Origin: Nitrospirota bacterium
Lineage (GTDB): Bacteria > Nitrospirota > JACRHJ01
DNA: 64,000 nt
Direction of reading: 5' to 3'
NCBI GenBank assembly: GCA_963733375.1
Contig: CAVTDB010000003.1
Location: forward strand, 128,001 to 192,000
Shown here piece by piece: positions 14,723-64,000 of this stretch (positions are counted from its first letter, which is position 1; every line of letters starts with the position of its first letter). Position numbers and translations under genes: made by a program. The notes beneath the pieces are model-generated. The model was not told the origin of the DNA. It made no database searches and worked only from the letters and a program-made list of their open reading frames with translations.

Positions 14723-14734
14723 AGTCGATCCTCC

Positions 14735-32063: not shown

Positions 32064-32432
32064 CTATTCTTTCATGACCGGCAATCCGAGCTCGGCAAGG
32101 CGCTTCTCCTCGCCATCGGCCCAATAACTCTTAGTGTTGGGGTCGTACAAGAGGTTTATGTCTTTCATTATCGGCGGTATTGGGCCTGTGTTTTTTGCAA
32201 GTCTGAAGAGACGCTCCCTGCCCGGCTTTGGAGATCTACTCCTGTAGCCGACTAGGGTAATATATCCTGCAGTTTTGAGCGTGCCCAAATAGTGGGTCAG
32301 ATTCTCGACCTCGGATTCTGAAAGCCTTGCAATGTCCCGAATAGCGAATGGGCCTCTAATGATCCTCATCACTTGCCAGGCGCGTTCACGCGCGGTATTT
32401 CTAACCCGCTTGTTTTTGGTAGTGCCTTTCAC
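32064..32432 (-). CDS. Winged-helix protein of the type found after MuB-like genes
   Basis: AWQVMRI, YLGTLKTAGYI, FRLAKNTGP.PP, LYDPNT. Confidence 0.75.
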   Translation of the reverse strand: MKGTTKNKRVRNTARERAWQVMRIIRGPFAIRDIARLSESEVENLTHYLGTLKTAGYITLVGYRSRSPKPGRERLFRLAKNTGPIPPIMKDINLLYDPNTKSYWADGEEKRLAELGLPVMKE

Positions 32433-44303: not shown

Positions 44304-44568
44304 AACGTCCTCTGATTTATTTTTCTCTACAATTTAAACTTACCTCTTTAAGTTCTTATTTATTCTCACTCTAAGTTCAGTTATCCTGTCCAAAAACCTA
44401 TTTAACTCCAGTCTCTTTTCTGATGATCGCTAATTTGTCACGTATCTGTGATGGTAACGTTGATTCATTGATACGGGATTCATTCAGGTTGCGAAGAAAT
44501 TTATCTTATTAGTCATGGTCTTAATGTCCCGAAAGTCAACGTGGCTCTGGCATTGTATGCAAAGGCGT

Positions 44569-44991
44569 TCATTTTCCACCTTTAATCATAGTTACGGTAA
44601 AATAAATAAACAGCAAACCTAACATTAAATTAAGCAGGGCGAAAATAATCCCGCTATAAGGAACCACAGAACCGGATACCAATATTCGAGTCCCGTCATA
44701 AATGAAATATCCGCCCGAGAAAAACATAAGAAATCCACTTAGACCAATATAAAGCAGAAAAAACCATTTTGCTGTTTTGTTATTTTTATAGAACAAGAAT
44801 GCCAATAAACTTAACAGAAAAAATTGGCCCAAAGCGACATATACAAGGTAGGACCTGTAGTCGTGTTTCCCTAAATAATTATTAAAAGCGCTTATAACTC
44901 TCACTAAATAATATGACAATACTACGCAGATGATTACTAATTTGTTTCTAAACAACTCGCGTATTATTAACATTGGTTTCCTCATTTGCAT
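44569..44991 (-). CDS. Four-TM membrane protein, candidate RHS immunity protein
   Basis: Hydrophobic ORF overlapping the RHS stop codon. Confidence 0.6.
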   Translation of the reverse strand: MQMRKPMLIIRELFRNKLVIICVVLSYYLVRVISAFNNYLGKHDYRSYLVYVALGQFFLLSLLAFLFYKNNKTAKWFFLLYIGLSGFLMFFSGGYFIYDGTRILVSGSVVPYSGIIFALLNLMLGLLFIYFTVTMIKGGK

Positions 44992-47900
44992 TTCTTGTTT
45001 ATCTTATCCTCATACTTTTTCAGGGTTTCATTGTAATCGTACCACCATGAATCGTTGAAAGCATCCCATATCCCATAATCTTGGCTTAACTCATACCATT
45101 CATAAGACTTCTGAATGTGCTCTTGGTATTCAGGTGGAGCATTAGGAAAATCAAAATTTTTGAATTTGTCGGCTTCCTTAGATTCTTCTTCTGCTTTCTC
45201 ACAAAACATCTTCCGCATAACATTCCTGAATCCATATGCCATAAAAGGACTAAATAATGGATCTACAACACGTTCGATTATTGTTTTTTCAGCTAAACCC
45301 AAAGGATCAATCCTATTCACAGGGCTGTTGCCTACGAACCCATATAAGTTCAATCCTCCTCTTTCTCTTAATGGGTCTCGTGTCATCCACTTCCCAATTA
45401 TCGGGTTATAAAACCTATACCCGTAGTAATTCGCCCCCAAGCTCGCATAGTAAGGCTTCGTCGAGAACTGATACGGCTGGTCGAGCGTCCCGCTCTTCGA
45501 TACAAGATTTCCAAAGTCGTCGTATTTATATGCCGCAACAACGTTCTGATTGCTGTCAATCACGGCGCTCACATTCCCTTTGCCGTCGTAGAGATAATTA
45601 TAATGCTGCCCGCCCTGAGCCAGTTCTAACAACCCCCCGATACCGCCAGGAGCTTTTGGATTCCAGAAGTAAGAGCGGGACACCGCGTTAGAGCTGTCCC
45701 TCTCCTGCACTACGTTAAAATTGTCATCCCTTATGAAGCGTGTTTCAACGCCATCAATAAATTGTTTTGCAAGCAAACCATCGCCGCTGTAAAAGAACTG
45801 ACAACTATGCTGTACGCTTTGTGAGTCCGTATACGATACAGTGCTCAACCTGTTCTCGGCATCATATGTCGCTGTAGCCGCATACCCGTCAGGCGTAAGC
45901 CAACTGGTCATGTTGCCGTCCGCGTCATAGGTATATGTTCTTGCCGGGTTGGTGGAATTTGTAAGCTGATTAACATTATTGTAGTTGTAATTTACAAGAT
46001 TGTTCGTCAGGCTCATCGGCTGTCCGTTAGTAATCGTCTCCGTGTCACGCATGTCCACGTTCGTTGGCGAATTATAAGTAAAGTCGGCCGCATTTATAAC
46101 TTGCGGTACGCTGTTCATATTAGATACTTCTGTTAGCCTTTGGAGTGGATCATACTGGTAGTTGGTTACGCTCCCATTCGGCCTCGTAAGACTAACAGGA
46201 ATCGGGCTCGGGCTGCCAGTAGAATACGCGGAGGTAAATACACGAGTGCCGCTCGTGATCTTATTTAATCTGCTAATCGTGTCATATCCGTAAGTAATGG
46301 AATCGCCGCCCTGTTGTTGCAGGTTCGCCCTTCTGCCGTTATCATCATACGAGTATGTAAGACTTGGACTGCTATCCCAAGGCGTCTGAACAGTGAGTAG
46401 CTTGGAATTAGCATCATAGCTATAATTCCATGCCCCAATGCCGTCGGTCCGGCTTGTTACGCGGTTATAAGTATCATAGGTGTAGCTAACATTCGGCGTA
46501 GTTTCATCTGAATATGTAATGCCAGTGAGCTTATTATTAGGGTCATATGAATAACTGGCCGTTATGCCCCGTGCATTCTTCTTGCTTATAAGCAGGTCCT
46601 CGCCATCATATACATAGACCTCGCCTTTTCCATCGGCATAAGACTTCCCTACAAGACGGTCGGATGAATCGTAAGAGAACCATGTAACATTGCCATTGGC
46701 ATCAGTCAGCGCCATCATATTACCGTCAGCATCATAGACATATTTGATTATAGTGTTGTCCGGATTTTTAACCTGCGTAAGGTGCTTCGTCGCGTCGTAG
46801 GTGTAATAGGTCGTGCGACCCGACCTGTCGGTATAGCTGTCTATCATTTTGGGGCAGCAGGAAGAATAGGTATATGCCTCCTGCTTTCCATCCGGGTAGG
46901 TTATGCTGGTTATCTGGTCGAGGTCATTATATAAATATGTGAGTATGAGTCCTGTTGTGTCGGTGACAGTTTGGATACGTCCTTTGCTATCATAAGAATA
47001 GCTGTAAAGGACAAGGCCCCCGCGTTCAATTGTGTGAAGCTTGTATTTTGCCGCACCTGTCGGACCGTAATAGGTATAAGTGGTGACGTTGCCAAGAGGG
47101 TTTGTCTTTGACGTTACCTGTCCAAAGCTGTTATATGTATAGCTCGTTTTTTTGCCGAGACGGTCAGTCAAAGAAGTTACATTATGAAAACCATCATAGC
47201 CAAAAGATACGGTTCCGAGACCATTAGAGATACCCGTAAGGTCTACATTATTCCCGGCATAATTCAGGATGGTTGTATTACCTTTGGCGTCTGTTACCGA
47301 AGTCTTATTGCCCATATTGTTATAGGAAAATGAAGTGGTATTACCCTTGGAATCCGTTATGGATGAACGCTCAGTGGTAGCCCAATCATATTGATAAGTG
47401 TTCACCCCGCCGCATTCATAATGCTCGGAATTAATTTCCCCTTTTTCATCTACAAGGACATAGTCGTATAAGGTCTTGGGTACATTGGACATGAAATTGT
47501 TATTTGAGCCATCAGCATATGGAATATAATTATTGGCGCTCACATGCCAACCTTCAATCAAATTTCCATCGTACTGATATTCCTGTTTATTGCCCACAGG
47601 ATTGGTTATAGTAATTCGATAATCCTGATCCATTGTCCCACCGGGCGCGGGATAGTCATTTGAATTATTAGGAATTCCATCCGGAAGTTCAGTATAGAAA
47701 CTCCAGGTTCCTCGCGAATTGCCTATAGAGGAGATATTTATGTTGCTATCGTAAGTCATTGTTGATGTATAACCGCCCATGTCAGTTATGCTTACGAGAT
47801 TTCCGTCGGTATCATATTCAAAAGAAGCGGATCTACCGAATGGGTCGGTTACCTGCTGAACAAGGTTAGCACCCGATTGGTAGGTAAGGGTAGTTACTTG

Positions 47901-49607
47901 ATTTAAGGCATCAGTAATTGTCACAAGCCTTACATTCGAATCGTAACCAAAGTTAAGGCTCTGTCCGTATCGATCTGTTATTTTCGTTAGAAAGGGCTGC
48001 AGAGAGTTCGTTCCGTCGGGAATATTGTATTCATAAACCGTGTCGTCTGGAAAGCGCAAGGTAAAATGATTTTCAGCTATTTTTGTTAAGGTATTGAAAA
48101 CGCCAAACGGACGAATATAGCCCCCGGAACCGTCGGGTGAATAAATATCACGTCTTCCATCCGGCATGAATAAAATCACCTGGCCACCAGTATCTACAAC
48201 AAAATAGCTCCCATAGTTTAACTGCCACTTATTGCCAAAAGGTTCATTTTGGTTTATGGCAGACTGCGAATTATAACTTAGCGTAATTTCAACAGAAGGC
48301 CCAACGGGGCTTTGGTACCACATGGGCGTGTCTTTAACATACATATTCATGTTTATGTTATTAACCCGCCACTTTGGTGAACCGCAGCCGTCGCCGCCAC
48401 CGCTATCACAACAGTCGCCTTCTTCACATTTAGGTGGTCCTAAATCATCTTCGGGCCTAGGTTCTCCACAGCAACCGCCAGTACAGCCCTCCATTTCTGA
48501 TGCAGATAATTTAATGCCTATATTGATGGGGGCATCCTTCGCTTGTAAAATAAGCACGTTCCCGTCCCATTCATTATCAAACTCTTGGGGCGCCTGATGA
48601 AATCTCCTGCCAGCTTGTGGATCAAAAAAGTCAAGACTCTTATCTTTTTTTATCTTATCTAATACCCAATAATGACCACCGTCTCCTGGATTGTGAGATT
48701 TTAACTGTACAATTGAGGGTAAGGGCAATTTGTTCAAGTCATCTTTCGTAATCTTAAGGCCGGCGACGCTATAGCCATATTTCAAAGCGATGTCTTTAAG
48801 TTCCTCCATACTGTAGCCTGAATCCGCAGTTGGTTTCATCATCCGCAGTTCATTTGCCTGTTTCACTTTGCCTTGCTTTTCCATTATGCTCGCCAGAGCA
48901 AGCGTTCCGCAATTCAGCATGGCTCTTTTATGAGCTTTGAAGAGCGACAGTCTATGAATCCAGTGACTGGCGTATGTCCTATCCCTCCAATCATCACTCT
49001 TGATAAGTTTTGTGAAAAGTTTACCGGCCTCGCCAAAGTTATTCTCATAAACCTTTAATACTCCGAGACGGAGCGAAGCTTTATTGACCATTTTCTTCGC
49101 CCCGTCATAAGTATTGTCTTTATCCTTGGTAAGGATTGTAGTGAAATAGGTTTCGGCCTCGCTGTAGCGGCCATTGTATTGAGCGTCGCAACCACAATGC
49201 AGCATGGCTTCCGAAGCCCATGGGCTTCGAGGGTATTCTGTGAGATGCTGCTTTAACAAAGAAGCCGCTTCCTTGTAATTGTGTTTGTTCCATTCCTGCA
49301 TGGCCTTTGCAAAGGACTTGTTAGCCCTGTCTACATCGGCAGCATGCCCTTTGTCTCCAATTGGCTTGATAATATCTTCTGTGGGATAGAGCTGCCCGCC
49401 TAATTGACCAGCTGCCATTATGTCGGTTGCAGTTGGATTTGTGAGGTCAAGGGGTTTTACCGAGTGTTTTACTCTGGGGATTTTAGAATCGGCATATAAA
49501 TAATTTGTATAGGGCGGCGAAAGAAGGAAGAGCAGCGATAAAACAGCTATGACAATAGAAGCTCTAAAAGATAGTTCTCTGCTAAACAATTTCTGCCTCC
49601 TTCGCAA
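44982..49607 (-). CDS. RHS/YD-repeat protein with N-terminal TPR and C39 peptidase-like domains
   Basis: Signal-like N-terminus; TPR; NCGTLAL / GHYWVL / FFDP; YD repeats; core RFYNPIIGKWMTRDP...NLYGFVGNSPVNRIDPLG. Confidence 0.9.
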   Translation of the reverse strand: MRRRQKLFSRELSFRASIVIAVLSLLFLLSPPYTNYLYADSKIPRVKHSVKPLDLTNPTATDIMAAGQLGGQLYPTEDIIKPIGDKGHAADVDRANKSFAKAMQEWNKHNYKEAASLLKQHLTEYPRSPWASEAMLHCGCDAQYNGRYSEAETYFTTILTKDKDNTYDGAKKMVNKASLRLGVLKVYENNFGEAGKLFTKLIKSDDWRDRTYASHWIHRLSLFKAHKRAMLNCGTLALASIMEKQGKVKQANELRMMKPTADSGYSMEELKDIALKYGYSVAGLKITKDDLNKLPLPSIVQLKSHNPGDGGHYWVLDKIKKDKSLDFFDPQAGRRFHQAPQEFDNEWDGNVLILQAKDAPINIGIKLSASEMEGCTGGCCGEPRPEDDLGPPKCEEGDCCDSGGGDGCGSPKWRVNNINMNMYVKDTPMWYQSPVGPSVEITLSYNSQSAINQNEPFGNKWQLNYGSYFVVDTGGQVILFMPDGRRDIYSPDGSGGYIRPFGVFNTLTKIAENHFTLRFPDDTVYEYNIPDGTNSLQPFLTKITDRYGQSLNFGYDSNVRLVTITDALNQVTTLTYQSGANLVQQVTDPFGRSASFEYDTDGNLVSITDMGGYTSTMTYDSNINISSIGNSRGTWSFYTELPDGIPNNSNDYPAPGGTMDQDYRITITNPVGNKQEYQYDGNLIEGWHVSANNYIPYADGSNNNFMSNVPKTLYDYVLVDEKGEINSEHYECGGVNTYQYDWATTERSSITDSKGNTTSFSYNNMGNKTSVTDAKGNTTILNYAGNNVDLTGISNGLGTVSFGYDGFHNVTSLTDRLGKKTSYTYNSFGQVTSKTNPLGNVTTYTYYGPTGAAKYKLHTIERGGLVLYSYSYDSKGRIQTVTDTTGLILTYLYNDLDQITSITYPDGKQEAYTYSSCCPKMIDSYTDRSGRTTYYTYDATKHLTQVKNPDNTIIKYVYDADGNMMALTDANGNVTWFSYDSSDRLVGKSYADGKGEVYVYDGEDLLISKKNARGITASYSYDPNNKLTGITYSDETTPNVSYTYDTYNRVTSRTDGIGAWNYSYDANSKLLTVQTPWDSSPSLTYSYDDNGRRANLQQQGGDSITYGYDTISRLNKITSGTRVFTSAYSTGSPSPIPVSLTRPNGSVTNYQYDPLQRLTEVSNMNSVPQVINAADFTYNSPTNVDMRDTETITNGQPMSLTNNLVNYNYNNVNQLTNSTNPARTYTYDADGNMTSWLTPDGYAATATYDAENRLSTVSYTDSQSVQHSCQFFYSGDGLLAKQFIDGVETRFIRDDNFNVVQERDSSNAVSRSYFWNPKAPGGIGGLLELAQGGQHYNYLYDGKGNVSAVIDSNQNVVAAYKYDDFGNLVSKSGTLDQPYQFSTKPYYASLGANYYGYRFYNPIIGKWMTRDPLRERGGLNLYGFVGNSPVNRIDPLGLAEKTIIERVVDPLFSPFMAYGFRNVMRKMFCEKAEEESKEADKFKNFDFPNAPPEYQEHIQKSYEWYELSQDYGIWDAFNDSWWYDYNETLKKYEDKINKKCK

Positions 49608-49898
49608 AAACTAATAATAAAACTTGATACTTAGATGCTTAAGATTTGAACTCTGTTAAAGCAAGAATATCGGGATTACGTAGGGCTCGGATAGAGCAAA
49701 GGGCTATTAAACAAAAACTATGACAATAGTATAAGCAAAAAACACGCCACATAGATTTGGCAAACTAAAAATTTTATTTAAGTTTATGATATTATTTAAT
49801 AATCTTTTCTCATTTAGATTACCTCAAAAAATGATTTTTTGCGCATTAACGCTCCAATATTATGCATTATCGCTCATTTTTAAGTATATTCTGTCAGA

Positions 49899-50046
49899 TG
49901 TGAGCAGCCCCGCTTGTCGATATTGCAGGTTTATTTCAAAAAACAGTTTGAAGGGGGTGGGTCTATTGGGAGATTATAGTCAGAGAAGAGTTGACAAGCT
50001 CAGGGAAGCGGATGTGCTTTTAGGCAAAGGCGAGACGGTCGGTTAG
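49899..50046 (+). pseudogene. IS3-family orfA remnant
   Basis: KLREADVLLGKGETV resembles IS3/IS407 OrfA; preceded by an IR-like tgtgagcagccccg. Confidence 0.55.
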
Positions 50047-50327
50047 GCGTCGGGTGATTGGTGTCGCTTTAAGGAGTAGAAAAACCTTGAATTTCATTTA
50101 ATCTTCCAAAGTATTAAGAGTAAAGAAACTGAAAAAATTGTATAGATACCGTATATAAGGCAATTCAATTAAGGATTTTGTAAAAGAAAAAGGCTCCGTT
50201 GTAAGGGCCTTCAGATTATGCGGATTCTTTGAAGTAGGTTTTCTATATGGAGCACGGTTCGCCACAGCTTCTATTGGATCGCCTCTTTAATTTTTGACTA
50301 CAAGATAGTTATTGGAGTGAGGATGCC

Positions 50328-50362
50328 AAATGAGAGCCGGCTATTTAGGACGGCTCTCATTT
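50328..50362 (-). terminator. Hairpin downstream of the amylase gene
   Basis: aaatgagagccg...cggctctcattt. Confidence 0.65.
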
Positions 50363-50374
50363 AAAGAGGCCTTA

Positions 50375-52291
50375 TTATAGAACGGGTGCAAAAATCTGTA
50401 TCTCCATAGGTGCAAGGTTTACATCCAGTGCGGCTGTGTCACTCGTGCCCTTCAAATTACCCGGACTGTCATAAAATTTTGCCTGGTTTATTATCCGTGC
50501 CGTAGCCGTACCGGATGTTCCGAGGTTGCTATAGACCAGGGACATCTTCCTCGGCGGCCGATTCAGGTCTAGGTCAAGCAGGATTTGGCCTTGGAAGTTC
50601 TGAGTAGGGCTGGTATTTGCGGCAATCATTATCTCGCGGTTATAAAGTATTCGAGAGAATGCCAACATGCCGCCTTTCCCGAACGAATGACCGAAATCAG
50701 ATCCGTTGCCTGATATTTCTCTGAAATATATCCTTCCATAACGGATGGCGGGCTCGCTCATGCGCAAACGCGCAATGGCCTGTATGTGTACAAACAGGGG
50801 GTTCGTTTGGTCGAATGCGGAAGGCCCTTTGCCCCAGAGCGCTTCACGGACCGATTCCAAGCTCCCATTGGCATCGATAGTCCCCTGTAGCCCTTGCTCC
50901 GTCCCATAGTACAGGCAGGGGACCCCTTGCAGACAAAAAAGCGCCGTTAAACCCAGACTGACCTGCTCTTTGGGAGTAGCTATATTATTAAATCGTCCCG
51001 GCTGATCATGGTTATCCAGGAAACTTACAAAATATTTGCCAGCTTCGCCATGCGAGCTGATAAGTCCTGTCTCCGCCTTTTTTCGGTTCTCAAAAACGGC
51101 GCGAACCTTCTCAACCTCGCAAAGTCCCTTGGCAGCCCAAGGCAAATTATAGAATGTCGGAAAATCAAGGGCCGCGTCGAGTCCGAAACCATCGACAGCG
51201 GAACTATGTCGCCCGATAAACTCATCGATAATGCTTTCCTGGTCGTAGACTTCAGCGAACGTAAAGAAATTCTTTTTGCCTATGCTCAACGCGAATTCTC
51301 TCATAGCGTTGCCAAATGTCTGTATCGCATCCGGGGCCACGTATTTTACGGTATCGAGCCTGAAACCATCAATGTCGTATTTTGCAATCATATTCTGGTA
51401 TATGCGGATAAGGATATTCAGCACAGGACTTCTGCCATATTTGTTGAGTAGGCCCGGTTGCGCGGGCTGTGCCGCGTCGTATTCCACGACGAGCTGGCGC
51501 ATTGTGCCGAAGTCTCCACGCACAAAACCATCGGGCGGAGGAGCATCTGTAAGTTTGTCCCCTCTTCTACGGAAAAATTCCTTTACTTGCAAGTCCGACG
51601 GCCAAACTGCATCGTCAGGAGAGAGCTTAAAACCGGAAGGAATATCATTCAATAAATTCGATTGCGGTTTTCCAGTTCGGTCTATCCACTCTATCGGAGG
51701 CTCCTGTCCAAAAGGGGCATCCATTATCTGCTGGCTTGCAAACTCGTTTACGAGAGAACCATTCAGTACGTAATTAAAAACCTGCGCCGAATGGTTCAGT
51801 ACGATGTCCAGGATTATGTAAATACCCCTTGCATGGGCCTCTTCCACCAATTCATTTAATTCCCGCTCGGCGGTAGCAACGGTGTGGTCGGATGCAAAGC
51901 GCGGGTCCAAATTCAAAAAATCCTGAATGGCATAACCGTAATAGGTGTTACTCCATTTTGCGTTTTTAAGTACCGGGCTCAGCCATATAGCCTTCGCTCC
52001 AAGGTTTTCGATGTAGCCAAGCTGCTCCTTCACGCCTTTAAATGTCCCGCCCTGCCAGCCGTCACATCTTTGGTTCCATGTAAATTGGGGGGGCACATCG
52101 GGATTATTGAAGCGATCCATCATTAAAAAATAGATCCAGCAATCACGCCAATCTTCGGGGGAAGGGAATGGATACGGAATAACTTTACTTACACCATCTA
52201 CAACAATCGTTTTTGTTTTTCCGTTCTTTGCCGCCTCCATTACATCATGTTCAATCTGGATCAATTCCGGACTTAAAATTTCCGTGGCCAT
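50375..52291 (-). CDS. GH13 alpha-amylase family glycoside hydrolase
   Basis: IYFLMMDRF, LDIVLNH, DGFRLDTVKY, FAEVY, FLDNHD, LYYGTEQG. Confidence 0.92.
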   Translation of the reverse strand: MATEILSPELIQIEHDVMEAAKNGKTKTIVVDGVSKVIPYPFPSPEDWRDCWIYFLMMDRFNNPDVPPQFTWNQRCDGWQGGTFKGVKEQLGYIENLGAKAIWLSPVLKNAKWSNTYYGYAIQDFLNLDPRFASDHTVATAERELNELVEEAHARGIYIILDIVLNHSAQVFNYVLNGSLVNEFASQQIMDAPFGQEPPIEWIDRTGKPQSNLLNDIPSGFKLSPDDAVWPSDLQVKEFFRRRGDKLTDAPPPDGFVRGDFGTMRQLVVEYDAAQPAQPGLLNKYGRSPVLNILIRIYQNMIAKYDIDGFRLDTVKYVAPDAIQTFGNAMREFALSIGKKNFFTFAEVYDQESIIDEFIGRHSSAVDGFGLDAALDFPTFYNLPWAAKGLCEVEKVRAVFENRKKAETGLISSHGEAGKYFVSFLDNHDQPGRFNNIATPKEQVSLGLTALFCLQGVPCLYYGTEQGLQGTIDANGSLESVREALWGKGPSAFDQTNPLFVHIQAIARLRMSEPAIRYGRIYFREISGNGSDFGHSFGKGGMLAFSRILYNREIMIAANTSPTQNFQGQILLDLDLNRPPRKMSLVYSNLGTSGTATARIINQAKFYDSPGNLKGTSDTAALDVNLAPMEIQIFAPVL

Positions 52292-52354
52292 ACGATTCCC
52301 TCCATACCTATAGATTTTTTTATATAATTCTCTATGTCGCTCCCTTCCAGCCTA

Positions 52355-52673
52355 TTAAAGAACCGTTACCCTTATCCATATTTCTCTCAAAGGCTGTTTA
52401 TCGTGTTCCCACGGACGTTCGCAATGATAGATGGACTTTTACTATGCCGGGGGCCAAAGCGGTGATGATAAGCAATTGTTCTATACTGTACGAATCCGGA
52501 GCTGCACCTCCGGGCAGCGGGCGGATGGGAGGAGGCAGCGATTCCATAGACACTGCCACAATGCCCACCTCACCCTCAATGTCCTGTTCCCAGCGGTAAC
52601 CAGCACTACCCAAACCGCCAATCTTCAACTGATATTTTTCTCCAGGCCGAAGGCTGATCTCATACGTTTCCAA
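52355..52673 (-). CDS. Chagasin-like (I42) cysteine protease inhibitor (frameshift near 52418)
   Basis: GLGSAGYRW; removing one base yields LRRPWE...IRVTVL-stop. Confidence 0.75.
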
Positions 52674-54616
52674 CGACAACCCCTTCGTGCCAGCCACTCC
52701 CGTCACGCCAGTAATGCTGCAGTTTATTATCAGTACGGAGCACAATAACTTCGAGATTAAACCCATAGCTTCCCTCAACCAAAGCGATAACTGCCCACAC
52801 ATCATGGCCGAAGGTGGCGCTTTGACGCCAGAGCATATCGCTGGAGTTAGCACACCACCAATGCTGTACGGTTCCCCCCGAAGTAGCAACACAGAGTTCA
52901 AAGTTTCCTACGGACGTTCTCGTCTTTAGCACCGTATTGTCCTTCAATCATGCAGGGGGGACTACTGACACTACTTCCAAAATTTGCACCTTCCTTCCAT
53001 GCCATACCATGGTCATTATCACGCCGCCAGTGTTGCATCTTTCCGGAGCTCAAAACACATACCAGTTCAAAATTGCCTTTATTATAATAATGGCTTTGTA
53101 TTAGTGTGGCTCCGCTGTGCATTACGTCGCTGGCAAAGCGACCGCCGTCGTGCCAACCCGCCCCATCTCGCCACCAATGATTCAACTTGCTGTCCGCCGT
53201 ACGTACCACGACTTCAAAGTTTCCGGGAGCATTATAATTACTTTGAATAAATCCAGGAACTCCTGCCGCATCGCTTGGACCGAAAATTCCTCCGTCGTTC
53301 CATTTCTGGCTTGACTGATCAAACCACCAATGATGAAGGCGTCCCGAACGTGTTAGATGGACAGACTCAAAATTGCGGTTAAAGGTAGTGCCTATGAATG
53401 TGGGACAGGACTTCAACGTATCATTTCCAAAAAGCGGCCCTTGGTGCCAGGGAAAACCTGTAGCCGAGTTGTCTCTCCACCAATGCCTGATCTGATTGCC
53501 CGGAGCTGCGGTCAACATCTCGAAATTCCGGTGCAAGGCTCCATTACCGCTTTCAATCATGCAGCCACTGTGAATGCGCCTTTTTGTCCATGGATCAGGA
53601 TTTGTACCCTGAAAACCTAACTTAGCGTAGGAATCAATGTCACATTCACCATAGCCGATACGGCCAAAACCACCCTGACCCCATGCAGGCCCCCAGGAGT
53701 TCTTTACAATCCAACAACTTAGAGAATCATCATAGCCGATGATCAACATAAAATGTCCACCCTCGGCTTTGTTAGGGGTAAACCCTATCATGTTTTGTTT
53801 GTGATAAACACCGGTGCCATATGAAAAGAAATCATCCCAGACTTCGATAAAAGTAGTTATGGGTCCGACAGTATCCAGCCATTTTTTCTGGTCAGCAATA
53901 TTACCAATTGGCGTATAATCCGGTATTTTGATCGTGCGGCCTGAGCGATCCGCTGTAGGTGTGTAGGCGACTTGGTCATACGGTCCGCCGCCCGTACCAC
54001 CGCAGCCTGAACATCCCGATGATGTAACAGGCCAAGCAAAGCAACCTGGATCGGCCGCACCATGATCCTTCATCCAGTCCAAAGCAGCGCCAGGGTTGCC
54101 GCAATCACAGCAGTGGCTACCCATACCCTTATGAACATCTCCTTCTGATATCCAGGGCCAAACGCAGTGCTCAATTCGGGCCATTGCTTCCACGAGGGCT
54201 ACCGCAGTGAAACACCAACAAGCCTCACAACCATTCTGATCGCGAAAACTGGTAATCCACGGCCAACCCCACCTGTTGCGCCAATCGAGGCTTGCCGGCA
54301 CTGTGCCTCCCGACGGTAAAATTCCCTCTCCGGGTTCTATTTCAGGCAGAGAACCTAAATGAAACTCTTTTTTGACGACAGATTCAGGAATGATGCCATG
54401 CGCTATCCTACGCTGAAGGATAAAAGGATTATTTGGTTGGATCTTAAAAAGATTTATAAAGTCGATTGGCTTTACATCTACCGATCGTATTAAACCCTCC
54501 TTTAGACCGCCTAGTGTACGTACAGGAATGTCCTGAATATCCAGAAGATTATCATTAACGGACCATCTTGCTTTGTTCTTTTCAAGAGTTTCCCTCAGAT
54601 CTTTTATTTTCGGCAT
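52660..54616 (-). CDS. Papain-family (C1A) cysteine protease with C-terminal Trp-rich propeller repeats (frameshift near 52910)
   Basis: LDWRN, DQNGCEACWCF, GGHFMLIIGY, IVKNSWG; repeats NFE...HWWRD...W. Confidence 0.88.
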
Positions 54617-55010: not shown

Positions 55011-56586
55011 TTAAACTGGAATTTCAACAATAAATCTGGATCCATTTCCTTCTCCATCCGATTCAGCCCAAATCCTTCCGCCGTTATTTTCTATCATCTG
55101 CTTCCCGACATACAGCCCGAGTCCGGTACCGCCAGTATTGAGACGAGATGTATCCTTGCCCCTTGAGAATTTGGCGAAAAGGTACGGAAGCTCACTCTGT
55201 GGAATTCCGATTCCGGTATCCGAAACAGTGACCCGGATGTTCCCTTTGACCTGTTCAAGATTCAGTTTAACTCCGCCTTTTGGCGTATACTTAATCGCAT
55301 TATCTACAAGATTGGAAATCACCTCCCTAACTTTCAGGCCATCGATAGTGACTTCGGGTAGTGGACTTGCCGGTTTTATATATTCCAAGCCCAGGTTGTG
55401 CTCTTTGGCCTTCAAAGCCAGAGTATCTATGACCTCCTGACAAAGATCCTCCATCTTCCATTTGGCAAATGTGAACTCCATCCTGCCTGATTCAATCCGG
55501 GAGATGTTGAGGAGGTCCTCGACGAGGTTTACTGAGCGGTCGCCGCTATCATATATCTTACTTAAGGCATCACGTAATTGAGATTCGACGTTTCCATAAG
55601 CGCCTTCAAGAGCGAGTGAAGCATATCCCTTAATCGCGGTAAGCGGGGTTTTGAGTTGATGGGAGGCAATGGAAAGAAAATCCGATTTGGCGTTATCCAG
55701 TTTCCGGAGTTTATCATTGGCCTGAGCGAGCCTATTGGACATCAACTGAAGTTCTTCCTTACGCTTTACTTCGCTTAAAACACTCTTTACCATGAAAACG
55801 GATAATAGTGTAAGCACGACAAACATTATAGATTTATAAATTCTCTGTCCTATTGTATCCGCCACAAATATCTCCATTAAGGAAGCGCCTATAATGAAAA
55901 TGGACAATAGTTCAAAAGCGACCACCTTTATATTCATCCATCTATATTGCACTATGGCATAAGTGGTAAACCCCACAAAAATCAAAGAGCATGACACATC
56001 GAAGTTGGTAAATCTTTCATAACCCAAAGCCGGTAGGACCAGAACCAAACATGATGCTGCCCGCTCCATAAAGCAGGAATCCTGTCAGTATTGTCCGGTA
56101 ACGTTTCTTCTCTTCGCCGGAGCTTTTAAAGAAGTGCCCTACCAGCTTAATAAGCGCGAATAAATAAGCGAGTTCAAAGAAGGCCAGGAAGGGGATAAAT
56201 AACGGGCCTGCCTGCTCAGTAGTCCCCGTTATGCGATCAGGCTTGATGTTTGTAATGACCAGATTATTAATGAGCGGGGAAATGATAAATATAGACCCGA
56301 CAAGGCCTGTTAATATCTCTTTGGCTATTTTCCTTTTTGGGTCTAGTAAACCGTATATCCAGAATAATAAGAAAGTTGGGATTAGCGCGGCAGTCGAATA
56401 CGCTAATTCATCATAGAAGGCATGGCCGGTTTTATAGACAAAGAAATCAGCTAACGACCAGATAAAAGTGGAAATGGCAAAGAGGGCAAAAGGGATTTTC
56501 CCTTTTTCTGCCCGGGAATCAAAAATGACGACTATCCCTAGTATCAGGTTTATGATTCCCGTAAATATGATTATATATGCGGTCAT
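55011..56586 (-). CDS. Membrane sensor histidine kinase with multi-TM (7TM-type) input (frameshift near 56060)
   Basis: SHQLKTPL, NLVDNAIKY, DTGIGI, GTGLGL; N-terminal hydrophobic helices. Confidence 0.88.
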
Positions 56587-58094: not shown

Positions 58095-58853
58095 ATGCAA
58101 AGCAAAAAAAAGAAAAAAGTTGTGGCGTATTGCAGGGTATCAACTTTAGAGCAGAAGAAAAAAGGGCATGGGATAGACATCCAGATTAGGGACGCTACTT
58201 TATTTGCAGAGAGGCATGGTTTATTGATTGAGAAATTCTACAGAGATGAGGGCGAGAGCGGCGTAAAGGAAGAGCGGAAGGCTTTAAAGCTATTGATGCG
58301 GGCTTGTAGGAATAACAGGATTGAGACGATTATCCTGCCGTCGCTCGACCGGCTCTCAAGGGAGGTCAGGATCGCCGAGAACATCTTTCATGAGCTTAAA
58401 AACCTGGGAGTGAAGGTTCTGATAGCTGACATGCCCTACTATAACGGAGAGCGCAAGGACATCCTGATTCGGCAGATTTTAGAGGCGATCGCTGAAGAAA
58501 ACAGAAGAGACATCATCGAACGGCTCTGGAAAGGACGGCAGGAAAGGACGAGGAAGGGCCTCTTCCCAGGCGGAAATCTGCCCTATGGCTATGTCCGAAA
58601 GAATAAGAAAATTTTAGTCCACCCTCACGAGGCCGATATTGTGAATCAAATTTATGCCTCGGCTTCTCACGGACTCTCAGGCGGGGCCATAGCGGATCGT
58701 TTAAATCAGTTTGGATACAGAAGAAGAAACGGCAAACCATGGACTCAGCGGCAGGTATGTCGAATACTGCACCACGTACGGATTTATCAAGGAGGATTAG
58801 TGCACTATGGAGAGGTTTTTGGAAGAATTAATTCCGCGGCTATTTTAGTTTAG
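58095..58853 (+). CDS. Serine recombinase (resolvase + recombinase domain; short)
   Basis: YCRVST..Q, DEGESG, LDRLSR, GGNLPYGY. Confidence 0.88.
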   Translation: MQSKKKKKVVAYCRVSTLEQKKKGHGIDIQIRDATLFAERHGLLIEKFYRDEGESGVKEERKALKLLMRACRNNRIETIILPSLDRLSREVRIAENIFHELKNLGVKVLIADMPYYNGERKDILIRQILEAIAEENRRDIIERLWKGRQERTRKGLFPGGNLPYGYVRKNKKILVHPHEADIVNQIYASASHGLSGGAIADRLNQFGYRRRNGKPWTQRQVCRILHHVRIYQGGLVHYGEVFGRINSAAILV

Positions 58854-58996
58854 CACTTAAAATTAAGAGCCTGTGCTGCGTTTGGGTTGTTGGTATACTG
58901 CTTATCCTTTATTTGAGTTATTCCAAGAGTTGTGGTAGAGTCAAATGTAGATATAGCCCTTATCCAAAGCTTACTTTTACTCTTGCGAGGGCTTTT

Positions 58997-59178
58997 ATGG
59001 CATCCTCACCCGCAAATTTTAAAATCATAGCAGATAACTCACAGACGTTGATAACTTGGAGCCTGACAGCTGTCGGGGGATCCATAGCCGCCATTGTCGG
59101 AACCTCATACCACAGCCCTGAACAATGTACGTATTGGCGTCTTATATATCTGCTCTTTATTCCAGGATGGATTTTCCT
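58997..59178 (+). pseudogene. Membrane protein gene interrupted by the Mu-like element end
   Basis: MASSP...LITWSLTAVGGSIAAIV...IYLLFIPGWIF runs into TGTAGCG at 59179. Confidence 0.55.
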
Positions 59179-59313
59179 TGTAGCGCACCAAAATCTGTGT
59201 CAGTAAAGCCACATTATTTGTCAGTGTGATAGCCGAGATATTTGTCAGAAATACTTCTCAAAGCTAACACCAAATTCTCAAATCATTTGGGAAATAATAT
59301 CACAAGGCGGGGC

Positions 59314-59366
59314 TTTAAAAAAGGTTTTAAAGGGGCCGAAAAGCCTCCTTTAAAACCTTTTTTAAA
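59314..59366 (-). terminator. Long hairpin after the protease gene
   Basis: tttaaaaaaggttttaaagg...cctttaaaaccttttttaaa. Confidence 0.7.
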
Positions 59367-59372
59367 CGGGGT

Positions 59373-60431
59373 TTATTCTACTCTTTTGCTGTATTTCTTG
59401 AAACTTTCAGCCGATATTCCGAAGCCCTTATTAACTTCCTGTTGTGTTGATCCGGCGATCAGGTTGGACTCAGGCAAGCGGCTCGCGCCGAACTCCCTGA
59501 GGGACACCACCACCGGCGCGACGGCGATAAAAGACTTTAACGCCTCTAAATCCTTCCCGGCCAGGTCGTCAGCCCAGGGACGCATAGCGGGCGTTATTTT
59601 ACCGGCCTGCATAGCCTCCTGTATGACGTTTTCAGTGTCCCGCACAACTATCTCTCTCCTTAGCTGTTCAAGTTCGCCCTGGGCCTCCTGTGCGTTCTCT
59701 TTATGCGCCTGTATTGTAGACGGAGGCCCGTTCTTGTCGATGCACTTTTTCCATGCGGCCTCTATCTTGTCCATGATTTCCTTTTGCTGCTCAGGAGTAT
59801 AAGCGGCGGCGTCTTCCTGGCGGTTGATGGAATCCCAAGCCGCCCGCACCCGCTCCGGGTCCAATTTGCCGCCCTTCTTTAACGGGTATCTGGGCATTCT
59901 GTCCGACTGATACCCCATATCAGCGTATCCGGCCTCTTTGTGCGTCCCGTACTCGCCTTTTGGGGGAGTATCATCAACACCCTCTTTGTTGACGACGGGG
60001 ATCATGCCGTCAATCGCGGGCGCATTTGTTAAGGCGGCGTTCACGAATTCAATAACCCGGCCTGTAGCCTTTTTTACGAAAACGACCGGAGAGAGATAAC
60101 GGTATTCGCGGTTTTTAAGATACTCCCGCGCCTTCTCGGTCCATTCCACGGTAGCCCAAATGCCGCCTTCCTTGCCGTCGCCCCTATCTTCAAGCCCCTT
60201 TATCCAACCCGCAGCCGGGGCCTGTGTCCCCGCTAAGGTTTGGTGTTCATAGTCAATCACCGTGTCATTTTGAAGCGCCGAATATTTAGCAAGAACCTCT
60301 TTCCTTGATTCGGCGTCCACCAGCATCTCAGGCTTCCCTTTCGGAGAGATTTTACCGCCCGGAAGAACCTGTATAAAGGTCGGAATCCCCTGTAAATCCG
60401 CACCAACTGAAAATGCTACTTTCTCCTTCAC
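59373..60431 (-). CDS. Mu-like prohead protease/scaffold (gpI)
   Basis: IDYEHQT, APAAGWI, VEWT..AREYL..REYRYLSPV, AALTNAPAI, GKITPA. Confidence 0.9.
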   Translation of the reverse strand: MKEKVAFSVGADLQGIPTFIQVLPGGKISPKGKPEMLVDAESRKEVLAKYSALQNDTVIDYEHQTLAGTQAPAAGWIKGLEDRGDGKEGGIWATVEWTEKAREYLKNREYRYLSPVVFVKKATGRVIEFVNAALTNAPAIDGMIPVVNKEGVDDTPPKGEYGTHKEAGYADMGYQSDRMPRYPLKKGGKLDPERVRAAWDSINRQEDAAAYTPEQQKEIMDKIEAAWKKCIDKNGPPSTIQAHKENAQEAQGELEQLRREIVVRDTENVIQEAMQAGKITPAMRPWADDLAGKDLEALKSFIAVAPVVVSLREFGASRLPESNLIAGSTQQEVNKGFGISAESFKKYSKRVE

Positions 60432-60447
60432 TTAAACCTCCTATTCA

Positions 60448-60999
60448 TCACACCCCCTTCAACAAAAAGTCTTCAAGCTCTTCACCAATCTCCCGCCAGT
60501 CCTCGTCCTGGACAACCAGGAAGGGCCTGGCGGGGATGGTTACCTTTTTGCCGCGCCCAGCCTTGCCGCCGAAGTTCTGAATCGCGGCGTATTTTTTATC
60601 CGACCCGACCACAATACCGCCGTCACTTGCCCTAACAACAATATCATCTGAGAGTTGCCCCGACTTAATGAGGATTTTGCGCCTCTTGCGTATCTCTTCG
60701 GGGCTCATGCCTTTCTGATAGCCGCCGCTCTTCTTTAGGACGCCGCCTTGGCCGTACTTATTTTTCCCCGCGTACAGCGACGCTACTGAAAGTTCTTTCC
60801 ACTTCTCGTTGCCGCCTTTCGCGCTGCCCGGCTCCGAGTACCGGCCCCCGACCTCGAAGTTTTTTATGACGGAGGTCCTGACCGTCTCGCCCATTTTCTT
60901 AAAAGCGGGCAGGAGCTTGCCCGTGCGGCGTCCAATTTCGAGGAGTTTTTTAATTCCCGTATCGTCTATTTCGACCTTTAACGGCTCAAATCCCGACAT
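60448..60999 (-). CDS. Mu gpG-like virion morphogenesis protein
   Basis: LIKSGQL, VGSDKKYAAIQNFGG, IPARPFL. Confidence 0.88.
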   Translation of the reverse strand: MSGFEPLKVEIDDTGIKKLLEIGRRTGKLLPAFKKMGETVRTSVIKNFEVGGRYSEPGSAKGGNEKWKELSVASLYAGKNKYGQGGVLKKSGGYQKGMSPEEIRKRRKILIKSGQLSDDIVVRASDGGIVVGSDKKYAAIQNFGGKAGRGKKVTIPARPFLVVQDEDWREIGEELEDFLLKGV

Positions 61000-61065
61000 G
61001 ATCTCCTCTCCCTCTGTAAAAATTCCATTTTTAAGTGCCCCTTAAACGCTGGTGCTGCCCTCTCT

Positions 61066-61099
61066 CCCCCGGAGGGCTACATTCGTAGCCCTCCGGGGG
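61066..61099. terminator. 15-bp-stem hairpin after the capsid gene
   Basis: cccccggagggctac-attc-gtagccctccggggg. Confidence 0.7.
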
Positions 61100-61136
61100 A
61101 GTCGGCGCAACGGGCGAGAAGGGTCCCCGGTGCGGC

Positions 61137-62027
61137 CTATTGAGTGCCGTCGCTGCCGTATGCTAACTGCCAAAGGCCATAGCCCGCGTTATCGCGGCTG
61201 TCCACGCCGAACTTGTACTCTTTCTTCATAAACACGGAATCTTCATCCGGGCGGTTGATCATTGTCACCACCGGCGCTTTGCGCTGCTGGAATACGAGCG
61301 CCTTAACCGCCTTCTTGCTATCTAAGAGATACCAGGCGGTCGGACTGGCGGACAGGCCGGGAACCACCAAAAGTTCGGCGCTGCCCTTCCATTGATTTGA
61401 TGTTGCGTCGATCAAGTCGTTATGGAGGAGAATGCGGCCAACCTCCTCAAGTTGCGGCGGCACGGCGAGAAGATCGGGCACGATGTTTAATATCTTTCCC
61501 TGGTCATCCTTCAAGGACATCATCTGCGACCTGGCAAGCGCATAACTGTTTGAGGCGAGGATGCCGTGGCCGAGATTCGATTGTATCGCGCCATCGAGGC
61601 CATAAGGGTGTGCAGCGGTGAAAAAGGGTAGGCCGTCGTAACATAAGCCTGTGAAACCGCCAAGGAGAAGCTCATATAAAAGCTCGTCCGGGTGGTATTT
61701 CGCGGCCTCTGCCATTGAAGCCACAAGCGGCTTATATACGCCATACCTGTCGTCTTCAATGTCATTCCTGTCGATCGCGACGGTTGATTCCCAGTCCCGG
61801 TTCTTTATGCTGTAGTCATACAGCTTCATGTTAGCCAGGACCCTTTCACCTATCCATTCCCGCATCCTGGGGAACCTGCCGAGCCATGCGTAAATTTCTT
61901 CCCGCGTGGCAGAGGGAACCGTCGTGGCGAGCTTATTTAAGACGCTGGGCGTCGTCTCAAACACCTCATTAAAGATCGTTGCGACACTTTGGTAAACGAT
62001 CTGCAAATTCGCCTGATTGATAATCAT
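61137..62027 (-). CDS. Mu-like major head protein (gpT family)
   Basis: YAWLGRFPRMREWIGER, NRDWESTV..RNDIEDD, CYDGLPFF, FQQRK, GVDSRDNAGYGLWQLA. Confidence 0.92.
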   Translation of the reverse strand: MIINQANLQIVYQSVATIFNEVFETTPSVLNKLATTVPSATREEIYAWLGRFPRMREWIGERVLANMKLYDYSIKNRDWESTVAIDRNDIEDDRYGVYKPLVASMAEAAKYHPDELLYELLLGGFTGLCYDGLPFFTAAHPYGLDGAIQSNLGHGILASNSYALARSQMMSLKDDQGKILNIVPDLLAVPPQLEEVGRILLHNDLIDATSNQWKGSAELLVVPGLSASPTAWYLLDSKKAVKALVFQQRKAPVVTMINRPDEDSVFMKKEYKFGVDSRDNAGYGLWQLAYGSDGTQ

Positions 62028-62040
62028 ACTTCTCTGCCTC

Positions 62041-62313
62041 CTATTGAGATTGTTTTTGCCGCATTATTGCGGAACCTTCACGCCGTCTTTCATAAGCTTC
62101 TTTATAAAGCCTAAAAAGCTCTTCCTCTTCATAGCCCAATTTAGTAATAGCAACTGCCAATTTTTCATAGGTAGAAAACTGCGGCACGGCCCCATGTTCT
62201 ATATCGCTCAACGTCTGGTTAGAAAAATTGAAACGCTTCTCAAAGTCCACGATTGTCAGCCCCGCCCGGAGACGAGCTTCAAGGATATATTTTGCCAGGG
62301 TGGAAGCTTTCAT
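62041..62313 (-). CDS. XRE-family HTH protein
   Basis: ARLRAGLT...SNQTLSDIEHG..P. Confidence 0.75.
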   Translation of the reverse strand: MKASTLAKYILEARLRAGLTIVDFEKRFNFSNQTLSDIEHGAVPQFSTYEKLAVAITKLGYEEEELFRLYKEAYERRREGSAIMRQKQSQ

Positions 62314-62591
62314 TTCGGGGGCCTTTTGATTCCCTTCACGACGTAATTAATCCAGCGAGTAGTTTTTTCATATTTCCTTGCTAATTTTCTCACGTCCGCC
62401 CCTGTGCTGAATTCTTCTCTAATGCTCCTGTTTCTTGCCCTTGCCGTGCAACGCTTAAAAATCGGAACATACATGGCAGTACCGCCTATTTTTTCGCAAA
62501 GCTGTACCGCCATATCCAGCCCGATCACGTCCGCCACCCTTAAATAATAGTCAGGGAAATCTTCTATCTTTATTTCTTCTTTAAGGTCCAT
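62310..62591 (-). CDS. Mor/C-family transcription activator
   Basis: IGLDMAVQLCEKIGGTAMYVP, RNRSIREEF, LARKY..TTRWI. Confidence 0.85.
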   Translation of the reverse strand: MDLKEEIKIEDFPDYYLRVADVIGLDMAVQLCEKIGGTAMYVPIFKRCTARARNRSIREEFSTGADVRKLARKYEKTTRWINYVVKGIKRPPK

Positions 62592-62694
62592 TAAATTGCT
62601 CCCTTAAGTTTAGGGCCGGACCCGATAGACGGTGCGGGTCCGGCCCCCATTGCCAGGGGAGAGAGGAGGAAGTCCCCGGCAAATTATAAATCAC

Positions 62695-63060
62695 TCAAAC
62701 TTCCCCCGATGAAACTAACATTTCCGATATCTCTACAAGGCGCTTTATCTGGTCCTCCAAAAGATAAGCGATACCTGTTAATCGTCGGATATTGAAATTT
62801 TGCGTCTCTCCAAGGGCAAGTAGAGATTCAGTAATTCCCTCAAGCCGGAAAGTGACATTATCAATTTCATCACGCTGATCTGCCGCTATGGGAAAAAGCT
62901 CTCGAAGCGTTTTAGCCGTTGGAGTAATCTTAAGCTTCGGCGTTAAAGACCTGCTTCTTTTCTCAATCTCCTTGCCTATAGTCTGAATTAAGCTTGTCAG
63001 CTTTTTATCACTCGCAGTGCTGATTTCATGTTTAAACTCGCGGCCCATTGTCTCCCCCAC
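62695..63060 (-). CDS. Hypothetical protein
   Basis: 121-aa co-oriented ORF within the element; no motif recognised. Confidence 0.6.
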   Translation of the reverse strand: MGETMGREFKHEISTASDKKLTSLIQTIGKEIEKRSRSLTPKLKITPTAKTLRELFPIAADQRDEIDNVTFRLEGITESLLALGETQNFNIRRLTGIAYLLEDQIKRLVEISEMLVSSGEV

Positions 63061-63130
63061 TCTAAACCTCGTTTAAAAGGCGTTTAAAAGCCTCTGCGCG
63101 GTCCTTAAAACGCAACCGCCTCCCTTACCC

Positions 63131-63802
63131 CTAAACAAGCACCAAATCCTCAGCAGCGGCCTTTATAAGCTCCGGGGTAGTTTCCTTAATTCCGTTTACT
63201 TCTTTAAGGCCCGCTATATTTTTTAATAGCTGAGACAAAATGCGAAGATTTCCCCTTGAAGCTTTGTGTAAAAGCTTTGTCGTTTCGGAATCCAGTTCCG
63301 GTAAAGCTAACCGCATTTCCGAAAGGTCCAGGTTAGAAAAATCAGCCCGGAACTGTAACCTTGAGCTTAATTGGTCCAGGCGCTGTTTTCTTAACCGGCC
63401 CGTGAATTTCCTGGACCCGATGAAAAGGACCGGCGCGCCGCTTGCGTCGTGAAGGCCGCGAATCAGTTCCAAAACGTCTGTGCTTAGAAGGTCCACTTCA
63501 TCAACAATGGTTATACCGTGCTGCCATTTGTAATGCTTTAAGGCTTGTTCATACCGGGCCGAAAGTGTCCAGTCCCGGTATTGAACCATCTTGTCCAGGA
63601 GCGCATTTAAATACTCGCTCGGTGTCATTAAGTTATGCCCGGAGACGAAATAACACCGTGCATGGCCTTGTTCTGCATAAAGATTTGCAGCTGTGGTTTT
63701 GCCTGTCCCGGCAGAACCTATAACCAGCGCCATTGATTTGTTATCAATGACCCTCGCCGCGATCTCGCGGAATTTCCTTGTGTACGTCGTCTCCAAAACC
63801 AT
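63131..63802 (-). CDS. MuB-like AAA transposition ATPase
   Basis: GSAGTGKT, IVDEVD, LIRGLHD, QLSSR, GNLR. Confidence 0.88.
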   Translation of the reverse strand: MVLETTYTRKFREIAARVIDNKSMALVIGSAGTGKTTAANLYAEQGHARCYFVSGHNLMTPSEYLNALLDKMVQYRDWTLSARYEQALKHYKWQHGITIVDEVDLLSTDVLELIRGLHDASGAPVLFIGSRKFTGRLRKQRLDQLSSRLQFRADFSNLDLSEMRLALPELDSETTKLLHKASRGNLRILSQLLKNIAGLKEVNGIKETTPELIKAAAEDLVLV

Positions 63803-63822
63803 AAATCCTCCTTTTACGGTTC

Positions 63823-64000
63823 TTAAGAGTTTGCCGCCTTAGCCTCAGCGGCTTCCTTGTCTGCTACAAATCTATAAATATTGTTTTTCTTAACTTGCGG
63901 CGCGCGATCTTCCTCGTGTTTTGCTTTTACTGCCTTACGTTCTTTTTTCAGATGCATAGGGACGGTTACAAATCCAGGGACTATAACCGGATCGGAAGCC
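63823..64000 (-). CDS. C-terminus of an upstream ORF, probably the MuA-like transposase
   Basis: Open frame ...PMHLKKERKAVKAK...NIYRFVADKEAAEAKAANS-stop directly upstream of the ATPase; the identity is inferred from position only. Confidence 0.5.
   Translation of the reverse strand, partial: ASDPVIVPGFVTVPMHLKKERKAVKAKHEEDRAPQVKKNNIYRFVADKEAAEAKAANS

Follow-up and report, generated by a model that had tools for sequence, protein, structure and literature searches.

A 7.8-kb Mu-type transposable element with its own head genes in a Nitrospirota genome, a candidate phage satellite of a recurring compact kind

What is a Mu-like element that carries genes for transposition and for building a phage head, and nothing for a portal, a terminase or a tail? 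The question is raised by one end of a 64,000-nucleotide stretch of DNA from a Nitrospirota bacterium (GenBank assembly GCA_963733375.1, contig CAVTDB010000003.1, here C3, positions 128001-192000; hereafter the window). The assembly consists of 26 contigs and is 81% complete with 5.18% contamination. The original prediction, made from the letters of the window, proposed that positions 59179-64000 belong to a candidate satellite that transposes with a DDE transposase, supplies or remodels phage heads, and borrows packaging and tails from a Mu-like helper. The results described below give a probability of roughly 55% to the reading that this is a miniature Mu-type transposable element of a recurring 7-8 kb kind, most likely a satellite, and that the copy in this genome is probably non-autonomous.

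The window contains the right two-thirds of the element (59179-64000), and a further 3,019 bases extend past the window, giving a total length of 7,841 bp. For the part outside, we use the coordinates of locus L005, to which 57000 is added to obtain window coordinates. The right terminus at 59179 reads TGTAG, and the left terminus at L005 10019 (±3) is TGTAG again. A 19-nt consensus matches the right end on the plus strand at 59207-59225 and 59231-59249, and the left end in inverted orientation at L005 9790-9808 and 9994-10012. These four matches, three of which were used to derive the consensus, compare with 0.17 expected, and none of 200 shuffled sequences reached four. The right end (59179..59249, plus strand) had been described as a TGT terminus followed by three repeats; the terminus, extended to TGTAG, and two good 19-nt sites were recovered, and the first repeat, at ~59188-59205, is a weaker copy of the same site. 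We take the 19-nt repeats to be putative sites of the transposase-binding type. Like Mu-like transposable phages, the element thus has TG...CA termini and, close to them, repeated sites that are inverted between the two ends. A degenerate terminus near L005 9835, which would have made 9836-10019 a third element, was considered as the left end and dropped because 9994-10012 matches the end consensus. The G+C content of the element is 47.5%, compared with 53.8% for the whole contig.

The open reading frames (ORFs) of the window were assigned to families with Pfam and PHROGs. In the window, the minus-strand order is transposase tail, MuB-like ATPase, an ORF of no known family, Mor, a helix-turn-helix (HTH) protein, T, G, and I, and the seven complete ORFs are all open; both gene order and integrity agree with the original prediction. 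The C-terminal tail of a Mu-type DDE transposase (63823-64000, minus strand) continues past the window, so that the gene occupies three frames on the same strand at L005 6823-7998, 8010-8276, and 8132-8713 (PF09299 and rve). Adjoining the transposase, as in Mu-like phages, is a MuB-type AAA+ transposition ATPase of 223 amino acids (aa) at 63131-63802 on the minus strand (AAA_22; phrog_296, E = 2.6e-35). It is followed on this strand by a 121-aa ORF (62695-63060), for which Pfam, PHROGs, and homologue comparisons were all blank, and by a 93-aa Mor-family transcription activator (62310-62591; PF08765, E = 4.1e-15; phrog_836 and phrog_532). A 90-aa HTH protein of the Cro/C1 type (62041-62313, minus strand), identified from its ORF and the family scan, is located between Mor and the capsid gene. 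The start of the HTH gene overlaps the stop of Mor, and the HTH gene and T abut; Mor, HTH, and T are therefore read as one operon.

The three head genes are also on the minus strand. They encode a Mu T-type major capsid protein of 296 aa (61137-62027; PF10124, E = 1.4e-93), a Mu G-type virion morphogenesis or head completion protein of 183 aa (60448-60999; PF05069, E = 8.4e-16), and a Mu I-type head protease/scaffold of 352 aa (59373-60431; PF10123, E = 1.5e-67; PF20223; phrog_328) with a DUF6582-like insert in the middle of the protein. In the nearest canonical phage (L019 3993-5330) the DUF6582-like module is N-terminal, and here it lies between the protease and scaffold parts; from the sequences, its position would represent a domain shuffle within the protease/scaffold gene. 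Two minus-strand hairpins accompany these genes. One, with a 17-bp perfect G+C-rich stem, lies between T and G (61064..61101; -50.8 kcal/mol, z -8.8). The other, predicted earlier, directly follows I with a 20-bp perfect stem (59314..59366; -31.4 kcal/mol, z -4.9). The Rfam scan gave nothing in the element, and its sole match was a tRNA-Val outside it.

The original prediction had pointed to the sequence beyond 64000 for the transposase and the other end, and both were found there. Besides these, that part of the element holds only a 103-aa ORF upstream of the transposase (L005 8673-8984) and a divergent HTH repressor (L005 9147-9545, plus strand); the terminase, portal, and tail genes whose presence on this side would have refuted the original prediction are not there. 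In the gap between repressor and early genes, a sigma-70-like promoter with an 11/12 match is directed into the early genes, although promoter-like sites overall were no more numerous than expected from shuffled sequence. Over the whole interval between the two ends, no portal, terminase, Mu F, tail, or lysis gene was found by Pfam, PHROGs, and ORF reading, and no integrase lies inside the element.

The element resembles Mu in its MuA-type DDE transposase with a Mu-transpos_C domain, MuB-type ATPase, divergent repressor with early promoter, Mor, TG...CA ends with subterminal repeats, and T, G, and I head proteins. Mu has a genome of ~37 kb and a T=7 head. The element differs from Mu-like phages in its length of 7.8 kb, in lacking their portal, large terminase, F, tail, and lysis genes, and in its frameshifted transposase. 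It also differs in the order of the head genes, which is T>G>I here and G>I>T or I>T>G in Mu-like phages. The last difference bears on a rival explanation, namely that the locus is the dead remnant of an ordinary Mu-like prophage, that its head genes were left by chance deletions and rearrangement, and that its likeness to elements of Bacillota described below is coincidental. To reach the order T>G>I in this way, at least three events would be required.

The arrangement of T and I was compared across two surveys. A capsid alignment against species-representative genomes returned 80 loci, in which I stood before T in 69, T before I in 2 (L054 and L077), and T without I in 9. When IMG/VR was scanned with compact-type capsids, 80 loci were likewise returned; I was ahead of T in 63, of which 53 had a portal or F, T was ahead of I in 9, of which none had a portal or F and 6 had A and B, and 8 showed one gene only. 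In both surveys together, all 11 loci with T ahead of I were compact and without portal or F, and A and B were present in the same locus in 8 of the 11. The unusual head-gene order recognized in the original prediction is thus upheld, and its restriction to compact loci speaks against a chance remnant. A and B were found within a few kb of T in the two T>I genome loci and in two T-only loci (L061 and L086). A further compact locus, L071, has a Mor-T-Mor cassette without A or B, which reproduces the right half of L086 at 96.6%. The idea that L071 represents a Mor-T cassette tied to a Tn916-type integrase was rejected; it is the copy of the L086 right half beside another mobile element.

The compact elements, found in Bacillota genomes and viral contigs, contain a repressor, A, B, Mor, and T and then I, plus G or gp27, and none of them contains a portal, F, or the large terminase subunit (TerL). 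The group comprises L054, L061, L077, L086, L132-L139, L145, and L156, with termini that read TGTA(A/G). Five of them are bounded by inverted repeats, with sizes of 7,844 bp (L077), 7,045 bp (L086), 7,444 bp (L132), 8,042 bp (L135), and 7,974 bp (L145). The 7,841 bp of the Nitrospirota element falls within this range of 7,045-8,042 bp, an agreement that counts against a dead remnant. L077 has a 27-nt, 93% terminal inverted repeat and carries a small-terminase-like gp27, a small virion protein, T, a protease-only I, Mor, B, A, and a repressor; it is flanked by host genes on one side, whereas on the other a single base of contig follows the terminus. L086 carries a repressor, Ner, A, B, Mor, T, and a second Mor. 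The order in L135 is repressor, Ner-like, A, B, two small genes, Mor, T, I, a 104-aa ORF, and gp27, and in L136 and L156 G is added after I. L138, whose right terminus was placed by eye, has a host gene on either side, one encoding an SPFH protein and the other an SLH protein. The sequences suggest that T was relocated in these recurring compact Mu-derived elements, so that it directly follows Mor and precedes the protease gene. Two other loci were observed in the surveys. In Paenibacillus melissococcoides, four identical copies of the capsid gene lie at contig ends (L093-L096), as expected of an actively transposing multi-copy Mu-like phage. The IMG/VR contig L192 has a transposase-like match only ~1.7 kb ahead of its F, I, T, and G genes and may represent a different type of shortened Mu-like genome.

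The capsids of the compact elements formed a single clade, supported in a careful tree by an ultrafast bootstrap of 87 and an SH-like approximate likelihood ratio test (SH-aLRT) value of 98 (5 rows) and in a quick tree by an SH-aLRT value of 99 (11 rows). The branches inside this clade are deep, and the compact elements are therefore regarded as an old lineage rather than as repeated accidents. The Nitrospirota element shares with them a length of 7-8 kb between Mu-type ends, termini of the TGTA(A/G) form, the set of repressor, A, B, and Mor, a T gene downstream of Mor and upstream of I, and the lack of portal, F, and TerL. It differs from them in that its A and B are 25-30% and its T ~50% identical to theirs, in its order T>G>I as opposed to T>I>G, in the HTH gene between Mor and T, and in the terminal inverted repeat of ~20 nt or longer, which is present in theirs and not here.

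Relatives of the proteins of the element itself were sought among 5.8 billion proteins. The closest relatives of T were P0003 (88%; ENA, contig of 12,481 nt) and P0002 (86%; JGI, contig of 4,606 nt), with the next best at 60%. P0003 contains two garbled stretches that match another frame of this T gene and is therefore a frameshifted or mis-sequenced copy. The G protein has a relative, P0123 (81%, 130 aa), whose contig, likewise from ENA, is 12,481 nt long like that of P0003. The sole MuB homologue at E<=1e-25 was P0198 (58%; Logan, contig of 8,182 nt), and a 60% T homologue, P0014, has the same source and contig size. The persistence of these relatives of T and G elsewhere, together with a rare MuB type that appears linked to T on an 8.2-kb contig, counts against a chance remnant. 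The refuting possibility named in the original prediction, an arrangement both unique and decaying, is accordingly only half borne out: relatives and a compact lineage exist, and the transposase of this copy is broken. Scans of viral contigs with this T and G gave nothing above relatives of 29-34%, and a metagenome scan with this T gave nothing above relatives of 34-46%.

Several observations weigh against a satellite of this recurring kind. One concerns the links just described: the co-location of P0003 with P0123, and of P0014 with P0198, is presumed from equal contig sizes and sources. If each pair does share a contig, links of T to G and of MuB to T within ~8 kb recur outside this genome. 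A second is the position of the capsid itself. The T protein of this element grouped with capsids of Nitrospirota phages, outside the Bacillota compact clade, and forcing it into that clade cost 27.8 log-likelihood units with an approximately unbiased test p value of 0.158, so that membership is neither rejected nor supported. In the quick tree, the T of the L019 module (row L053) was sister to this T together with P0002 (SH-aLRT 96). In genomes, the closest G (69-70%) is also in L019, a canonical portal-F-G-I-x-T module, and this joint proximity to an ordinary phage favors the origin of the locus as a dead remnant. The 11 genomes of the host family have capsid homologues that are ~60% identical and stand in modules with I ahead of T. 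By the placement of its T, the Nitrospirota element would have arrived at the same design independently or would belong to the compact group as a very remote member. Its transposase type (A1) was detected in only 2 of 400 other genomes of the phylum, at 35-36% identity and in both cases within full-size phages.

The condition of the transposase also counts against an active element. As assembled, the gene is broken into three frames by two 1-base frameshifts. Each behaves as a 1-base deletion in or beside a short homopolymer, one at a C5 run near L005 8015 and the other in a T4/G3/A4 stretch near L005 8290. The pieces align in order with relatives of 643-652 aa, and the catalytic D, D, and E motifs are present. 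If the frameshifts are real, this copy cannot move itself. An assembly full of indel errors was considered as their cause; intact ORFs of 1,602, 1,541, and 1,167 aa in the window argue against a high uniform error rate, although frameshifts also occur in a sensor kinase gene (55011-56586) and in the head cluster on contig C10. A broken transposase is what a dead remnant would show, but the nine other ORFs, both ends, and the two terminator hairpins are intact.

The ends and flanks present further difficulties. Beyond TGTAG, no long terminal inverted repeat was found, and the top-ranking 24-mer pairs had no relation to the ends. The original prediction had called for a 5-bp target-site duplication matching the bases before 59179; the flanks read TTCCT and GCCGT, and no such duplication exists. 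Target duplications are also missing from L086, L135, and L145, the compact elements with both flanks visible. The left terminus of the element interrupts a MuB gene ~30-37 aa before the end of that gene, which belongs to another Mu-like prophage, itself truncated. This outer prophage keeps a 777-aa transposase, 22% identical to that of the inner element, a Ner-like gene, a repressor, and its own TGTAGC end adjoining the tRNA-Val. Its remainder was found neither beyond the right end of the inner element nor elsewhere in the assembly. The possibility that the outer MuB homology runs past the junction was rejected, as the protein and DNA alignments stop by ~L005 10020. At the right end, a plus-strand ORF at 58913..59206 (58913..59178 outside the element) runs into the terminus and may be the interrupted host gene of the original prediction; neither Pfam nor PHROGs assigned it to a family, and a comparison with 20 relatives gave no homologue. 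Next to this ORF and outside the element, a serine recombinase of 252 aa (58095-58853) has Resolvase and Recombinase domains and looks truncated, with its C-terminal part missing. The relative G006 carries a DNA stretch 81% identical to the serine recombinase region.

Two readings fit the unmatched flanks: an adjacent deletion made by the transposase after insertion, or the joining of different insertion sites by the assembler. The latter could mean that the junctions are assembly artefacts in which flanks from different insertion sites or strains were joined across a mobile repeat. A metagenome-assembled genome with some contamination, two flanks that do not match as one target, and other metagenomic copies that likewise lack target duplications and whose contigs end at the element termini would all be in line with this. 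Nevertheless, each junction coincides precisely with a TGTAG terminus that has cognate sites, the element is single-copy in the assembly, and an error in the flanks would leave its content unchanged; we regard an artefact as improbable. The same flanks, with the missing duplication and the nesting in a truncated prophage beside a truncated serine recombinase, are also what might be seen around a dead remnant, and other phage genes in this genome, such as the head cluster on contig C10, are decaying as well. Considering this evidence together with the gene order, size, intact genes, and persisting relatives given above, we judge a dead remnant of an ordinary prophage to be unlikely.

A satellite would be expected to have a helper, and the findings here are again unfavorable. 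The co-resident Mu-like helper sought in the original prediction did not emerge: no complete one is present in the 81%-complete assembly, Mu F is absent from the assembly, and the sole Mu-type portal is a fragmented one on contig C10. In the genomes with L077, L086/L061, and L054, no second, canonical T gene was found. The C10 cluster of head and tail-like genes (~39300-54600; L007) has the order TerL, I, Mu-type portal, small virion protein, T, adaptor, further genes, and endolysin, without A or B, and shows ~20 one-base indels relative to an intact, 90%-identical relative. By DNA search, the C10 capsid gene has a match in 10 of the 11 host-family genomes, with only a weak match in G006. In relatives the cluster is intact. 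It may represent a prophage inherited vertically, or a cluster resembling a gene transfer agent, in decay in the present genome.

The missing helpers are also relevant to another explanation, in which compact elements are kept as a defence against Mu-like phages: a Mor-responsive foreign capsid, scaffold, and neck protein would poison head assembly, and the element would not be packaged. Consistent with such a role, a resident helper is missing in three of four Bacillota genomes with such elements, T has been moved to the front in a Mor-HTH-T operon without portal or terminase, and the window holds many genes of defence types (TIR, NACHT, and type I restriction-modification). The other compact elements, however, keep full transposition and repressor modules and good terminal repeats; gp27, the small-terminase-like gene in several of them, points to packaging; and contigs break at element ends, as with multi-copy elements. 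A purely defensive function appears improbable on these grounds.

The proposal of a DDE-transposing satellite that supplies heads therefore stands in part. The head genes of its own, the Mu-type module, and the recurrence of the compact kind favor it; the disabled copy and the lack of a helper do not. Because the transposase is split, the flanks do not match, and no helper is present in the assembly, this copy is probably immobile and non-autonomous now, movable only in trans, and it may be a dead member of its kind. The satellite reading itself is plausible, and we infer helper dependence, capsid remodelling, and packaging from sequence only.

Known satellites provide a basis for comparison. 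Satellite families named in the literature include P4-like, PICI, cf-PICI, PLE, and PICMI. Full-text literature searches, with supplementary files outside their scope, returned no satellite with a Mu-type or DDE transposase. Two reports describe cf-PICIs as encoding every protein needed to form small capsids and to package DNA, with only the tails taken from another phage (bioRxiv 10.1101/2022.09.08.507074; NAR 2023 PMC10085698). Like cf-PICIs, the present element is a small chromosomal element with its own capsid genes and an incomplete virion set that would need a helper; unlike them, it has a Mu-type transposition module, no integrase, and T, I, and G without a portal or either terminase subunit. 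cf-PICIs use integrases, and to our knowledge the same is true of the P4-like, PICI, PLE, and PICMI satellites, which do not rely on transposition. P4, a satellite of P2, has its own regulators, engages in cross-talk with late activators of its helper, and forms small capsids from the helper capsid protein with Sid; it also uses an integrase. The element is similar to P4 as a candidate satellite with its own regulators, but its capsid, scaffold/protease, and G are its own. Laboratory mini-Mu is an artificial construct with Mu ends, A, and B that is packaged by helper Mu and has no capsid genes. The element shares the Mu ends, A, and B with mini-Mu and differs in being natural and in having its own capsid genes.

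If the element is a satellite, its cycle would most likely be as follows. It would multiply by Mu-type transposition and, being unable to make virions alone, would depend on a Mu-like phage for its portal, terminase, and tail. During growth of the helper, T and I expressed under Mor would build a shell on the helper portal, perhaps smaller than that of the helper, and helper proteins would then package the element and supply the tail, which would make it a phage satellite. The geometry of the shell would be decided by the element's own T and I, and the location of T directly behind Mor may allow early and strong T expression. In several Bacillota members, gp27 would suggest redirected packaging. 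By simple volume scaling from the Mu values, a T=3 shell would hold ~10 kb, which would fit 7-8 kb together with host flanks. More broadly, and tentatively, at least Bacillota and Nitrospirota might harbor an undescribed family, or convergent families, of DDE-transposing satellites with Mor-controlled capsid and scaffold/protease genes of their own, which would form a shell of a size suited to 7-8 kb genomes and use the portal, terminase, and tail of a helper, with the element in this window as a Nitrospirota member; we would put this somewhat below even odds.

Other features of the window were also noted. The 10 kb left of the element has a G+C content of 45.7%. A sensor histidine kinase (55011-56586) is split by a frameshift into seven-transmembrane and kinase parts (overlap 56017-56069), which indicates a pseudogene or else an error of assembly. 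Positions 44982-49607, in a low-G+C stretch, encode a 1,541-aa RHS-repeat protein with a C39 peptidase domain. A second Mu-type A/B pair, comprising a 666-aa transposase and a 250-aa ATPase, is located at 32064-35181, and a 95%-identical copy of its ATPase lies on contig C20 (17452-20192). This pair adjoins a defence-type run at 14285-30942 (metallophosphoesterase, type I restriction-modification, NACHT, TIR, and SLATT) and could be a Mu-type transposon carrying a defence island.

If the satellite reading is true, a satellite that multiplies by replicative transposition and supplies the capsid shell itself would represent a novel form of phage parasitism and a natural counterpart of the laboratory mini-Mu vectors. 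It would also offer a simple two- or three-gene system for how a capsid protein and its scaffold set head size. If the elements instead act as decoys that poison phage assembly, they would represent a new defence principle. These elements are small, bounded, and present in gut Bacillota, which makes the idea directly testable.

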